Shown here: in pieces, positions 1 to 5,494 of the stretch
How positions within the stretch are numbered: the stretch's first letter is position 1
Layout: each line of letters begins with the position of its first letter
Sequence record: MK629529.1
Direction: 5' to 3' (one strand)
Length of the DNA stretch: 5,494 nucleotides
Source: Escherichia phage Lilleto
Program-made: the position numbers and the translations under genes
Notes under the pieces: generated by a model
What the model was told of the DNA's origin: nothing
Seen by the model: only the letters and a program-made list of their open reading frames with translations
The model's database searches: none

Positions 1-1635
1 ATGTCTGTAGAATTAGTAAAACCACTCGTCGAAGCCGCTGGTATGTCGACACTTACACAATCCCCAAACCTCCGTATCTGGAAACAGGTAAACACCCGCG
101 TAAAACTCTTAGAAGAAATCCTTGCTCACTGGACAAATGGAATCCGTCGCTGCCCTGAAACCCAAGACTTCTACATGAACCCAAATTCTCAACTGGCTAC
201 CACTATTGCCTATCGTGCCCATCAAAAAGGACACAACCCAAAACTTATTCAATACCCTGATACATTTACTCTTGACGATATTATTCGCCGTAAACCAATC
301 CCTCAAACTGCCCCTAACGAATTGCGCCTCTCTGATGAAATCGGTGAGGATTACCGCCTTACAGTTATCGCTATTGCTGACGAACTGCAAGAATGTTACG
401 ACGTGCTCGGACAACTTGATATTAATAACACTATAGACCACACCCCTAAAGGTAACGCCCACTGGAGTATGCTTTATGATAAACCTGTTAACACCCATTG
501 GTCACAGCTCGTATCTAAACGACCCCTTAAAGATATCCGCGCCGATTACAACTATGCAAAGGCGAAGGGTATTAAGGATGAATGCTCAAAAATGCTTGAG
601 GAATCCACCATGAAATCACGCCGGGGCTTTACCGTTCAACGATTGATGAATGCTATGCGCCAAGCCCACACTGACGGCTGGTATGTTGTATTCGACACTC
701 TTACTCTGGCCGATGATCGCATACAGGCTTTCTATGATAATCCCAATGCTCTTCGTGACTACTTCCGTGATATTGGTCGTATGGTGCTTGCTGCCGAGGG
801 TCGCTCTGCTAATGACTCACACGCCGACTGCTATCAGTATTTTTGTGTTCCAGAGTATGGCACACAGCACGGTCGTCTACATTTCCACGCAGTGCATCTT
901 ATGCGCACACTTCCTCTGGGTTCTCGTGACCCTAACTTCGGTAAGCTGGTACGCACTAATCGCCAAATAAATAGCTTGCAAAACACTTGGCCTTACGGCT
1001 ACTCTATGCCCATCGCAGTCCGGTACTCCCAAGACGCATTCTCGCGCGCTGGCTGGCTCTGGCCTGTCGACTCAAAGGGTGAACCCCTTAAAGCTACCTC
1101 GTATATGGCTGTCGGCTTCTACGTCGCTAAATACGTCAACAAAAAATCTGATATTGACATGGCCGCAAAAGGCCTAGGGAATAAAGAATGGAACGCATCA
1201 CTGAAAACCAAAATCTCTCTACTACCAACCAAACTATTCAGAATCCGAATGTCCCGCAACTTCGGGATGAAGATGTTATCAATGGCGCACCTGACCGCCG
1301 AAACATTAATCCAACTGACCCAACTGGGCTACGACTCGACCCCGTTCAACAACGTCTTGAAACAGAACGCCAAGAAAGAGCTGAAATCGAGGCTGGCAAA
1401 AGCATCTGTCGCGACCGTTTTGGCGGCGCAACCTGTAACGACCAATCTGCTAAAATTTATGCGCGATTTGACCCGAACAATCGGAGCGTCCAACCTGCAG
1501 AATTTTATCGCTTCAATGACTCAGAAATTAACACTCATGGATACTTCTGATGAAACCAAAAACTACCTTGCTGCTGCAGGAATTACTACTGCTTGCTTAC
1601 GAATTAAATCGAAGTGGACTGCTGGTGGAAAATGA
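1..1635 (+). CDS. A: Replication initiation protein A (rolling-circle HUH endonuclease)
   Basis: 544-aa ORF from the track. HUH-type motif HFHAVH and the paired catalytic tyrosines in [12 protein letters not shown] (Tyr codons at 1120-1122 and 1132-1134). C-terminal two thirds closely resemble phiX174 protein A from memory. Stop TGA 1633-1635 overlaps the gene C start. Start at nt 1 assumes the genome was rotated to the A start; if circular, GGAGG at 5481-5485 lies 9 nt upstream. Confidence 0.94.
412..441 (+). other. ori(+): Viral (+) strand origin of rolling-circle replication, 30-nt core nicked by protein A
   Basis: Exact occurrence of CAACTTGATATTAATAACACTATAGACCAC, the conserved 30-nt origin embedded in gene A of phiX174-type phages (from memory). 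Expected nick between G418 and A419. Confidence 0.85.
610..1635 (+). CDS. A*: A* protein (in-frame internal initiation within gene A)
   Basis: In-frame ATG at 610 (A residue 204) preceded by GAGGAA at 598-603. Product is 341 aa beginning MKSRRGF, the same length and N-terminus I recall for phiX174 A*. Expression is not provable from sequence. Confidence 0.6.
976..1005 (+). promoter_or_regulatory. Candidate promoter P_B inside gene A
   Basis: TTGCAA at 976-981, 18-nt spacer, TACTCT at 1000-1005, about 185 nt upstream of gene B. The -10 match is weak; the call rests mainly on position by analogy to phiX174. Confidence 0.25.
1188..1550 (+). CDS. B: Internal scaffolding protein B
   Basis: 120-aa ORF in a different frame, fully inside gene A. 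C-terminal part ([25 protein letters not shown]....[15 protein letters not shown]) matches my recollection of phiX174 B. ATG 1188 preceded by AGGGA at 1176-1180. Stop TGA 1548-1550 overlaps the K start. Confidence 0.9.
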
Positions 1636-2474: not shown

Positions 2475-3761
2475 ATGTCTAATGTTCAAACTTCTGCCTC
2501 TCGTGATGCAATTGATTTATCACATCTGGTCTTCAACACTGGCGCTATTGGTCGCCTTAAAGTCGCATCATGGACCCCTGTTATCGCTGGTGATTCTTTC
2601 CAGCTTGACGCTGTTGGTGCTTTACGCTTATCCCCTCTGCGTCGCGGCTTGGCTATTGACTCAACTGTTGATTACTTCACTTTCTACATTCCACACCGTC
2701 ATATCTATGGCGATGCATGGATTCAATTTATGAAAACTGGTGTCGCTGCCACTTCTCTTAACCCTGTAACTACTGGCGAATACGTTGATAGCGCCTCTTA
2801 TCTTGGTGTAATCCCTTCTGCTGATGGCAAGGTTCCCAAGTTCCTGCACCAAGGCTATCTCAATATTTACAATAACTACTTCAAAGCCCCTTGGATGGCT
2901 GACCGTACTGAGGCAAACCCCTCCAACTTAAACGACGACGACCGTCGTCACGGCTTCCGCTGCTGCCATCTAAAAAACATCTGGTCCGCACCTCTTCCTC
3001 CTCAAACGGAAATCACTCGCGCTATGACTACTGGCGCTACTTCTATTGATATTATGGGTCTGCAAGCTGCTTACGCCCAACTTCACACTGATCAAGAACG
3101 TGACTACTTTATGCAGCGTTACCGTGACGTAATCTCTTCGTTCGGTGGCAAAACTCACTATGACGCTGATAATCGTCCTCTTCTGCTTATGCGCTCTAAC
3201 TTCTGGGCTTCTGGCTATGATATCGACGGCACTGACCAAACTTCATTAGGTCAATTCTCTGGCCGCGTCCAGCAAACATTCCGTCACTCTGTTCCTCGCT
3301 TCTTCGTACCGGAACACGGCGTTATTATGACTCTTCAGCTCGTACGCTTCCCGCCTACCTGCACTGAGGAAACTCACTATCTCGTCGGCAAAGGCGCACT
3401 AAACTATACTGACCTTGCGGGTGATCCAACTCTTTACGGTAACTTACCGCCTCGCGAAATCGAAATGAAAACTCTCTTCCGTGGCGCTGCTGGCTCTACT
3501 GAAAAAATCAAAATTGCCGAAGGGCAATGGTATCGCTATCATCCTTCTTACGTTGATGGACAATATCACAACCTTCAAGGCTTCCCGTTCATCCAAAATG
3601 GTCCAACTGGCAACATGGAAAACCGTGTACTGATTGACCATAAAAAATACGACGAATGCTTCCAATCACTCCAATTAACTCACTGGAATGCCCAGGCTAA
3701 ATACAATGTCACTGTATATCGACATATCCCGACCACACGTGATAGCATCATGACTTCTTAA
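2475..3761 (+). CDS. F: Major capsid protein F
   Basis: 428-aa ORF with high similarity throughout to phiX174 F (e.g. GALRLSPLRRGLAIDSTVD, HTDQERDYFMQRYRDVISSFGGKT, TTRDSIMTS terminus). AAGGA at 2464-2468 upstream of ATG 2475. Stop TAA 3759-3761. Confidence 0.97.
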   Translation: MSNVQTSASRDAIDLSHLVFNTGAIGRLKVASWTPVIAGDSFQLDAVGALRLSPLRRGLAIDSTVDYFTFYIPHRHIYGDAWIQFMKTGVAATSLNPVTTGEYVDSASYLGVIPSADGKVPKFLHQGYLNIYNNYFKAPWMADRTEANPSNLNDDDRRHGFRCCHLKNIWSAPLPPQTEITRAMTTGATSIDIMGLQAAYAQLHTDQERDYFMQRYRDVISSFGGKTHYDADNRPLLLMRSNFWASGYDIDGTDQTSLGQFSGRVQQTFRHSVPRFFVPEHGVIMTLQLVRFPPTCTEETHYLVGKGALNYTDLAGDPTLYGNLPPREIEMKTLFRGAAGSTEKIKIAEGQWYRYHPSYVDGQYHNLQGFPFIQNGPTGNMENRVLIDHKKYDECFQSLQLTHWNAQAKYNVTVYRHIPTTRDSIMTS

Positions 3762-3772
3762 AGCCTATAACG

Positions 3773-3812
3773 TGACAGGGGGCGAAAAATTTTAATTTTT
3801 CGCCCCCTGTCA
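3773..3812 (+). other. F-G intergenic hairpin with 17-bp perfect stem; candidate complementary-strand origin element or terminator
   Basis: TGACAGGGGGCGAAAAA (3773-3789) pairs perfectly with TTTTTCGCCCCCTGTCA (3796-3812) around loop TTTTAA. The F-G intergenic region is where G4-type phages carry the primase-dependent complementary-strand origin and where phiX174 carries a terminator. Confidence 0.5.
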
Positions 3813-3862
3813 GGTTGAACAAGCGCAAGCGCGTTAGCTACCTAACTATAAGGACTACTCAA

Positions 3863-4387
3863 ATGTTCCAGAACTTTGTCACTAAACACAATTCTCCTCA
3901 ATTTACTACTACTATCACAAAGGCTGTCACTCCCGCCGCGTTGGCTCCTATTATTAATACGCCAACCGTTGCGCGTGACAATCTATTTGTGAATCTAACT
4001 ATTACCGCCCTGACTTCTCCGGGCGGTATCTCTGCTGTTGTCGCTATCGACAACTCCTCTCATACCGACAATCAGGTCGTTTCTGTTGCTGCCTCACTTT
4101 CTACTATCGGCAGCCTCGTACCTGTTCTTTGTCGGTTTGAATCTGCTACTGTCCCAACGGCTATCCCCGCCTCTGCGGTTACTTACTATCCGTTGGAATT
4201 TAAATCATCTGATACTACTCTGTCCGTTAAGGACTGCGTTACTGTCTCTACTCTTTCTCGCTCTGGCAATCCTGTTTATGTAGGTATTGCCCTTATTGCG
4301 AAATCATTTGTCGCCGGTACTGTGTACGGCTCCATCTCAATTAATCAGGTTGACCAAGAAATCACAACTCTGCAACCTCTCAAATAA
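3863..4387 (+). CDS. G: Major spike protein G
   Basis: 174 aa from ATG 3863 (MFQNFVTKHNS...), preceded by AAGGA at 3850-3854. Ends ...QVDQEITTLQPLK, like phiX174 G (...QVIKEIICLQPLK). The track ORF begins at a TTG (3815) inside the intergenic hairpin region; that extension is rejected. Confidence 0.93.
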   Translation: MFQNFVTKHNSPQFTTTITKAVTPAALAPIINTPTVARDNLFVNLTITALTSPGGISAVVAIDNSSHTDNQVVSVAASLSTIGSLVPVLCRFESATVPTAIPASAVTYYPLEFKSSDTTLSVKDCVTVSTLSRSGNPVYVGIALIAKSFVAGTVYGSISINQVDQEITTLQPLK

Positions 4388-4396
4388 GGAATCTCT

Positions 4397-5434
4397 ATGT
4401 TTGGTGCAATCGCTGGCGGCATCGCCTCTACTCTTGCTGGCGGTCTAATGTCCAAACTGATGGGCGGCAATAAACAAGCCGCCCCTTTAACTCCCGGACA
4501 AGGCCTCTTTGCTACTCCTGAAACTACTATCTCTGCTGACAATGCAGGTATTCAATCTGTTATGCAGGGACCTAACCCGCCTAGCCCTGATAAGGCGGCT
4601 CCTACATTTACCGAATCTGCCGTCTCCTCACTTAAGGATGCTGGCAAAGGACTCCTCGATGGTACTCTACAAGCTGGCGGCTCTGCTGTTCAACAAGCTC
4701 TTCTTAACAAAATTGGCCTCGGTGGCAAATCTGCTGCTGATAAAGGCAAGGATACTAAAGATTACCTTGCTTCTGCGTTCCCAGAGCTCAACCCGTGGGA
4801 ACGCGCTGGCGCTGGTGCTTCCTCTGCTGGTATGGTTGACGCTGGTTTTGAAAACCAAAAACAACTAACCAAGATGCAACTTGACAACCAAGTCAAAATC
4901 GCTAAGATGCAAAACGAAACTCAAAAGGATATCGCTGGCATCCAGTCTGTCACATCACGCATGAATACTAAGGATTCTGTCTATGCTCAAAATGAAATGC
5001 TCTCTTACAACCAAAAAGAATCTATGTCACGCGTTGGCGCTATTCTCGAAAACACAAGCCTCACCAAACAACAACAAGTTTCTGAAATTATGCGCCAAAT
5101 GCTTACTCAGGCTCAAACCTCAGGACAGCACTTTACTAACGCTCAAATCCAAGAACTTACTCGAAAAGTCGGTGCTGATATTGATGCTGTTCGTGCTAAC
5201 ACTGAACGCACCCATGTAGAAACTGACCGCTCTAAACAGGAAGTCCAAAACTCACGTTATGCTTCATCACAGGTCGGTAAAACCGCCAAGGACGTATCAA
5301 ATGTCATTAGTGACGCATCTTCTGGTATTGTTGATTATTTTCGCGGCGTTGATAAAGCTGTGGCTGACACTTGGAACAATTATTGGAAAGATGGTAAAGC
5401 CGACGGAGTAGGCTCAAATATGTCTCGCAAATAG
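4397..5434 (+). CDS. H: Minor spike / DNA pilot protein H
   Basis: 345-aa ORF: [20 protein letters not shown]-terminus, glycine-rich region, and the KDGKADG.GSN.SRK C-terminus of phiX174 H. AAGGA at 4386-4390 upstream of ATG 4397. Stop TAG 5432-5434. Confidence 0.95.
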
Positions 5435-5435
5435 C

Positions 5436-5465
5436 TTGACAATCACATCATAAATCCTATCTAAT
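5436..5465 (+). promoter_or_regulatory. Candidate promoter P_A in the H-A intergenic region
   Basis: Consensus -35 TTGACA at 5436-5441 directly after the H stop; 18-nt spacer to TCTAAT at 5460-5465 (5 of 6 matches to TATAAT). Would drive gene A transcription across the circular junction. Confidence 0.4.
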
Positions 5466-5494
5466 AGCCTCCATTAACACGGAGGCTCTTTCGA
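5466..5494 (+). terminator. H-A intergenic hairpin (candidate post-H terminator; overlaps the gene A Shine-Dalgarno)
   Basis: AGCCTCC (5466-5472) pairs with GGAGGCT (5481-5487) around the 8-nt loop ATTAACAC, followed by CTTTCGA. The right arm contains GGAGG, 9 nt before the gene A ATG if the sequence is circular. Confidence 0.45.

Follow-up and report, generated by a model that had tools for sequence, protein, structure and literature searches.

The H-A junction of Escherichia phage Lilleto is a likely homologue of the phiX174 pA promoter, T_H hairpin and gene A ribosome-binding site

In phiX174, the well-studied junction between the genes H and A combines the promoter pA, the terminator T_H and the ribosome-binding site of gene A (Sanger et al. 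1977 annotation; Logel & Jaschke 2020). The junction reads TTGACA-17-TTTCAT-GCCTCC-AAATCTT-GGAGGC-TTTTTT-ATG. In the RefSeq entry of this phage the pA start is annotated at 3962, which is the first base past the 5' arm of the hairpin and thereby the first loop nucleotide; pA transcripts therefore lack the 5' arm. The in vitro transcript of pA reportedly begins with pppAAAUCUUGG, which agrees with phiX174 3962-3970. pA and T_H overlap, and the net change of transcription across the combined element is 0.29-fold (Logel & Jaschke, 10.1101/2020.03.05.979765).

Saturation mutagenesis of phiX174 placed the -35 hexamer of pA at 3927-3932, the -10 hexamer TTTCAT with a TATG extension at 3950-3955 and the gene A ribosome-binding site GGAGG at 3969-3973, inside the 3' stem of T_H (bioRxiv 10.64898/2026.07.25.740675). 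The same data confirm -35, -10 and GGAGG as functional, with 15 of the 35 detrimental pA mutations located within the -35 hexamer and GGAGG being highly sensitive to mutation (10.64898/2026.07.25.740675). With fitness as readout, 17 of 27 mutations of the 3' stem were detrimental (63%) compared to 3 of 23 in the 5' stem (13%) (10.64898/2026.07.25.740675). At least for laboratory fitness, the essential part in phiX174 is the ribosome site and not the pairing. In the literature we searched, which did not extend to the primary papers of the 1970s, pA is described as overlapping T_H and the ribosome-binding site as overlapping the 3' stem, but no test of a masking of the gene A ribosome site by read-through RNA was found.

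A related logic is said to operate in IS10 and IS50. Transcripts coming from outside reportedly pair an upstream segment with the ribosome-binding site of the transposase gene, and the elements' own promoter is said to start inside the fold-back structure, as reportedly described by Davis, Simons and Kleckner in 1985 and by Schulz and Reznikoff in 1991. A translational effect of the fold-back has reportedly been demonstrated, too. IS200 possesses a terminator directed against impinging transcription and a hairpin sequestering the Shine-Dalgarno sequence (PMC4513863). The logic proposed here for Lilleto is that of IS10/IS50: only RNA from a weak dedicated promoter would expose the ribosome-binding site, and read-through RNA would be terminated and/or translationally silent. 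Unlike in IS10/IS50, a single hairpin would be both terminator and mask in Lilleto. Furthermore, the sequences are unrelated, and the gene concerned encodes a phage replication initiator instead of a transposase.

The stretch of DNA analysed in our study (the window, 5,494 nt) is the complete circular genome of Lilleto, a G4-related microvirus (Bullavirinae, Microviridae). According to the list of open reading frames, one strand carries the full microvirus set A, B, K, C, D, E, J, F, G and H. The Escherichia phages Lilledu, lillemer, Lilleput, MG1 and Lilleen show 95.5-97.7% identity to the window over its whole length. The values are 93% for SECphi17, 83% for Salmonella phage PJNS002 and about 79-82% for the G4/ID2/ID18 group. 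Since the window begins exactly at the ATG of gene A, the H-A intergenic region forms its 3' end, where a gap of 59 nt (5436-5494) was read directly. The coordinates of its features are listed in Table 1.

The original prediction had presupposed a circular genome, with the end of the window joined to its start. This was confirmed by two relatives, lillemer, which was deposited as the opposite strand and with another cut point, and SECphi17, which was cut at another point as well. In both genomes the junction runs without a break from the H stop through 52 nt to the ATG of gene A, and these 52 nt, from the -35 hexamer to the end of the stem, are the same as in the window without a single change. 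H and A are therefore contiguous on the circle. Within the intergenic region, Lilleto deviates from all six close relatives only in the tail following the stem, where these have TTAAC or TTAACA, and for this reason the whole-genome matches end at 5487. The Lilleto tail shifts the Shine-Dalgarno motif of gene A from 7 to 9 nt before the ATG.

Table 1. Features at and around the H-A junction of Lilleto (window coordinates; position 1 follows position 5494 on the circle).
Feature	Position	Strand	Basis or remark
Gene H (minor spike / pilot protein)	4397..5434	+	ORF list; homologous ORF annotated as gpH in relatives
H stop TAG	5432-5434	+	1 nt ahead of -35 hexamer
-35 hexamer TTGACA, putative pA-type promoter	5436-5441	+	sequence; consensus match; same place in relatives
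Spacer, 18 nt	5442-5459	+	sequence
-10-like hexamer TCTAAT	5460-5465	+	5/6 consensus, without A at position 2; ends 0-1 nt before stem
Predicted pA-type transcription start	5472..5473	+	homology to phiX174 3962; 7-8 nt past -10 hexamer
Hairpin 5' arm AGCCTCC	5466-5472	+	fold; conserved, covaries with 3' arm across clades
Hairpin loop ATTAACAC, 8 nt	5473-5480	+	fold; varies between clades, stems kept
Hairpin 3' arm GGAGGCT	5481-5487	+	fold; holds gene A Shine-Dalgarno motif
Gene A Shine-Dalgarno GGAGG	5481-5485	+	9 nt before ATG
Tail CTTTCGA, degenerate U-tract	5488-5494	+	between stem and gene A start codon
Gene A ATG	1-3	+	on the circle, next after 5494
Gene A (replication initiator, 544 aa)	1..1635	+	99.6% identity to lillemer gpA

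A promoter-like element TTGACA/TCTAAT had been predicted for this junction. Both hexamers are indeed present, but they are separated by 18 nt and not by 17. No site other than TTGACA-18-TCTAAT agrees with the sigma-70 consensus in 11 or more of the 12 positions on either strand of the genome; about 0.04 such matches per strand were expected from first-order Markov random genomes with the same dinucleotide make-up. A consensus scanner applied to the window listed neither the promoter nor the hairpin of the H-A region. The filters of this program require an A at position 2 of the -10 hexamer and, for terminators, at least 5 T in 8 bases. It omits the Lilleto promoter because of the first filter, which the known pA of phiX174 fails likewise, and the hairpin went unlisted because of the second filter and the linear end of the window.

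TTGACA was found at the matching place in phiX174, ID2, PJNS002 and alpha3, and TTGACT in G4 and ID18. The -10 hexamer TCTAAT is unchanged in PJNS002 despite a genome-wide identity of 83%. Judged by sequence, TCTAAT is the counterpart of the degenerate TTTCAT in phiX174 pA, and the putative Lilleto promoter is homologous to pA. The distance from the -35 hexamer to the 6-nt core of the 5' arm amounts to 21-25 nt in all clades compared, so that the end of the -10 hexamer meets the base of the stem in every case. Given the standard distance of 7-8 nt from the -10 hexamer, transcription is predicted to start at the first base of the loop, a column occupied by A in 15 of the 17 aligned sequences. 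A start near 5472, as originally proposed, agrees with the C5472 or A5473 that we predict from homology to phiX174 and from the conserved spacing. The hexamers TATCTA and TAATAG were considered as alternative -10 elements and rejected as worse matches; either of them would still put the start at or past about 5470. The pA-type promoter may be weak in Lilleto, since its -10 hexamer has neither an A at position 2 nor a TG extension and its spacer comprises 18 nt.

The predicted hairpin at 5466-5487 was found as described, with the only Shine-Dalgarno motif of gene A in its right arm, 9 nt before the ATG. No other Shine-Dalgarno-like motif is present within 30 nt upstream of gene A. The CCUCC of the 5' arm has the same sequence as the anti-Shine-Dalgarno core of the 16S rRNA. 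With 7 bp, 5 of them G-C pairs, the hairpin reaches -12.1 kcal/mol (z = -5.4), and none of 200 shuffled sequences was as stable. It stays the dominant structure when folded in longer contexts and is the seventh most stable local 30-nt fold of the genome, about 3.6 standard deviations below the mean (mean -3.1, sd 2.7). A search of Rfam gave no family at gathering score in the window, in lillemer or in phiX174.

Lilleto and phiX174 have in common the position of the element between H and A, a TTGACA just past the H stop, a -10 hexamer without A at position 2 which adjoins the stem, and a GCCUCC/GGAGGC stem whose 3' arm contains the Shine-Dalgarno motif, with the ATG 7-9 nt downstream of this motif. 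The first loop base is the transcription start in both phages, as annotated in phiX174 and as predicted in Lilleto. They differ in the spacer (18 nt in Lilleto compared to 17 nt in phiX174), in the TATG (TRTG) extension of the -10 hexamer, which Lilleto lacks, in stem and loop (7 bp and 8 nt compared to 8 bp and 3 nt) and in the tail (CUUUCGA compared to U6). The closest classified relatives are the Gequatrovirus phages G4, ID2 and ID18, with about 79-82% identity of the DNA and about 85% of gpA. Their intergenic region of 58-61 nt shows the same order of elements as that of Lilleto. The stem of these phages consists of the 6 bp GCCUCC/GGAGGC with an 8-nt loop, to which the Lilleto clade adds an A-U closing pair. 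Furthermore, the Lilleto clade has TCTAAT-A against the stem, whereas NNNCAT or TAATAT directly adjoins the stem in G4, ID2 and ID18. The G4-type tails contain 5 T in 8 bases. Apart from a convincing U-tract, all features which define the phiX174-type element are present in the sequence of Lilleto.

Every enterobacterial Bullavirinae clade compared shows this layout, which was detected in phiX174, G4, ID2, ID18, PJNS002, the metagenomic contig L014 and 12 alpha3-like genomes; the energies of the hairpins lie between -11 and -16 kcal/mol. Three contigs (L028-L030) were left out of the comparison, being cut off or having an unclear start of gene A. GCCUCC/GGAGGC stems are found in phiX174, G4, ID2, ID18, PJNS002 and L014, the gpA of the latter being 53% identical, and the 12 alpha3-like genomes possess GCCCUC/GAGGGC stems plus inner pairs. 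Between the window and PJNS002 there are 5 differences in the spacer, 2 in the loop and further ones in the tail, but none in the 26 nt of -35, -10 and stems. In an alignment of 17 sequences, the helix was paired in 84% of the cells, compared to 37-52% with the partner slid. Both sides change at four pairs, and none of 500 shuffles reached the covariation score. The main event is an exchange of U-A/C-G for C-G/U-A, whereby GGAGG becomes GAGGG in the alpha3 group and the 5' arm follows. The inner pairs of the stem alternate between UAG/CUA and AAG/CUU, and G-U wobbles occur in three alpha3-like phages, which is consistent with folding of the + strand. As there are few independent events, mainly one swap between clades, the covariation is supportive but not decisive. 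Within this alignment, the phiX174, G4 and alpha3 groups have retained the same base pairing and arrangement as the Lilleto clade.

Two groups of sequences deviate from this picture. In the alpha3-like isolate NC35 (L016, NC_007820), a natural deletion of about 29 nt at 690-730 has removed the -10 hexamer together with the 5' arm of the hairpin in front of gene A; TTGACA and a GAGGA ribosome site are preserved. As a natural isolate has lost the 5' arm, the pairing is not essential. Together with the finding that most changes of the 5' stem are tolerated in phiX174, this loss indicates that the hairpin is dispensable under at least some conditions. The second group comprises Pectobacterium phage Mimer and Vibrio phage PG19, whose gpA is 35-39% identical. 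In their H-A regions a hairpin lies upstream of a promoter-like sequence, and the Shine-Dalgarno motif of gene A is unpaired. With this reversed order and without pairing of the Shine-Dalgarno motif in both phages, the layout is not universal in the wider group; placing the promoter inside the hairpin appears to be restricted to the enterobacterial lineages among the sequences compared.

In alpha3 (L005) the module consisting of TTGACA, a hairpin whose 3' arm carries the Shine-Dalgarno motif, a T-run and an ATG is present twice (1-70 and 700-758). The first copy directly follows the H stop and opens an unannotated reading frame of about 47 codons. The second is located in front of gene A, about 700 nt downstream. 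A post-H copy was looked for in alpha3 alone.

According to the original prediction, transcripts reading through from upstream genes would mask the ribosome site of gene A, and transcripts starting locally without the left arm would leave it free. Folding calculations agree with this, at predicted costs of about 12-15 kcal/mol compared to about 5-6 kcal/mol in Lilleto. In seven genomes representing all enterobacterial clades compared, 12.6-14.9 kcal/mol are needed to unpair the region from the Shine-Dalgarno motif to the AUG inclusive if the RNA reads through, compared to 3-7 kcal/mol if it is pA-started. The sequence L019 was left out of this comparison because the automatic search for the 5' arm misses its G-U wobble. 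When the start position was moved along the Lilleto sequence, the cost fell sharply from about 12 kcal/mol, found for starts as far as 5466, to 7.6 at 5468, and it amounted to about 5 for starts from 5470 on. RNA begun at 5472/5473 still needs about 5-6 kcal/mol to expose the ribosome site, since a weak pairing with the first codons persists; the short RNA is thus predicted to be more open, but not fully free. A ribosome-binding site paired with a segment found only on upstream-started RNA, by which fold-back systems are recognized, is hereby given as a folding prediction. The H stop lies 32 nt upstream of the stem, which should be too far for a ribosome terminating there to open the hairpin. 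On the basis of these modelled energies, a coupling of gene A translation to promoter choice is plausible.

Taken together, we consider it likely that the H-A junction of Lilleto is a homologue of the phiX174 element made up of pA, the T_H hairpin and the gene A ribosome-binding site, and that it works as follows. Polymerases coming from upstream promoters would read through H and both arms, and the hairpin would form. Part of the upstream transcripts would end there, probably fewer than in phiX174, and the hairpin would cap the 3' end of the H messages. On RNA that reads through, GGAGG would be held by CCUCC, resulting in a poor translation of A. RNA from the local promoter would begin at about 5472/5473 inside the hairpin and, having no 5' arm, would not be terminated there and would offer an accessible ribosome site. 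The weak local promoter, and not the heavy late transcription round the circle, would then chiefly determine the amount of the cis-acting A protein.

Only small amounts are made of protein A, a cis-acting replication initiator. We know of no dedicated regulators in microviruses, whose gene dosage is set by the layout of promoters, leaky terminators and ribosome sites on the circle. A tentative extension of the homology would be that the layout acts as a conserved translational insulator in the enterobacterial Bullavirinae; virtually all A would then come from pA-started RNA, the many circling transcripts of pB and pD would be silent with respect to A, and masking instead of termination would perhaps be the main selected role in the Lilleto clade. 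A hairpin of 22 nt may combine a terminator, a 3'-end cap, a ribosome-site mask and an element bypassed by the promoter. Such a compact design principle would help to refactor phiX-type genomes and to annotate the numerous new Bullavirinae which have automatic gene calls only. The overlap of promoter, terminator and ribosome-binding site has already been described for phiX174 and is hence not new. As the counterpart of a well-studied element the finding is real, yet largely ordinary, and what it chiefly adds in the case of Lilleto is a further lineage with the textbook arrangement.

The prediction that the same hairpin could act as the post-H terminator is doubtful for Lilleto. T_H is documented in phiX174, and the Lilleto hairpin has the stem of a canonical rho-independent terminator (at least 5 bp, at least 3 G-C pairs, a loop of 3-8 nt). 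However, its U-tract is poor. Canonical terminators have at least 5 U within 8 nt after the stem, and the best 8-nt window in Lilleto contains 4 T. In the first 8 bases past the stem there are 3-4 T in the Lilleto clade compared to 5-7 in all other clades. The tail score of Lilleto (3.4) is the lowest of the genomes compared (phiX174: 5.4), yet it lies at the 97.5th percentile of the genome background. No terminator was called by the scanner at the hairpins of lillemer and PJNS002, where the junction is unbroken, whereas the phiX174 hairpin was called. With a tract as poor as CUUUCGA, fewer terminations than in phiX174 are to be expected, and the terminator is probably weaker than T_H of phiX174.

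It might nevertheless be that the hairpin is selected only as a post-H terminator or 3'-end stabiliser, the overlap with promoter and Shine-Dalgarno motif being a by-product of genome compaction and the masking having no regulatory significance. T_H is an established annotation in phiX174, where the combined element removes about 70% of the transcription, and the 5-7 T past the stem are kept by all other clades. Mutations of the 5' arm are mostly neutral for phiX174 fitness, and NC35 is viable without this arm. Nevertheless we regard this explanation as unlikely. In the Lilleto clade the stem is perfectly conserved although the U-tract has decayed to 3-4 T in 8 and no terminator is called, a combination that termination alone explains poorly. 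The change from GGAGG to GAGGG in the alpha3 group was accompanied by a matching change of the 5' arm. Furthermore, the predicted start lies just past the 5' arm in every clade, a placement for which a plain terminator has no need. A perfectly conserved stem next to a decayed U-tract suggests that masking of the ribosome site or protection of the 3' end may matter more than termination in the Lilleto clade.

Considerably less probable is an action of the inverted repeat mainly as DNA, in the single-stranded genome or the replicative form, i.e. as a 'reduction sequence' or as a packaging or replication signal. The H-A 'reduction sequence' has been proposed to bind a limiting host site or factor for the replicative-form conversion of incoming DNA, and a plasmid-borne 495-nt fragment of phiX174 (3705-4200) inhibits superinfecting phage (PMC8310164). 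The determinants of reduction that were mapped are, however, amino-acid changes in gene H and not changes in the hairpin (PMC8310164). Parallel H-A substitutions arose in phiX174 chemostats, for which the authors were undecided between replication and transcription (PMC3606162). The Lilleto repeat does fold as DNA (-6.3 kcal/mol, z = -5.2). But its 3' arm is under constraint to remain GGAGG, correctly spaced from the ATG, the distances between -35, -10 and stem are typical of a promoter, and G4-type complementary-strand origins are situated in the F-G region, where Lilleto has a far stronger palindrome. The missing entries in the consensus scan of the window would fit promoter match and hairpin being functionless chance features of an A+T-rich spacer, but this can be dismissed, as the scanner also misses the proven pA of phiX174 through its position-2 filter, the shuffle and random-genome statistics speak against chance, the homologous phiX174 element has experimental evidence, and conservation with covariation across genera excludes it.

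Further elements were observed elsewhere in the Lilleto genome. The F-G intergenic region contains a perfect 40-nt palindrome at 3773-3812 with the arms TGACAGGGGGCGAAAAAT and ATTTTTCGCCCCCTGTCA and the loop TTTA. No other local hairpin in the genome is as stable as this palindrome, whose inner 30 nt reach -20.7 kcal/mol and which probably represents T_F and/or the origin of the complementary strand. A terminator-like hairpin at 2439-2456 (GTGGGACCACGGTCCCAC), located shortly before gene F, is followed by TCTATTT and is probably the counterpart of T_J of phiX174. A further perfect TTGACA is located at 1154-1159, just upstream of the gene B ATG (1188), and TTGACA-18-TACTAT at 1819-1848, just upstream of the gene D ATG (1889). 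These sites are probably the counterparts of pB and pD and would supply the transcripts reading through H.
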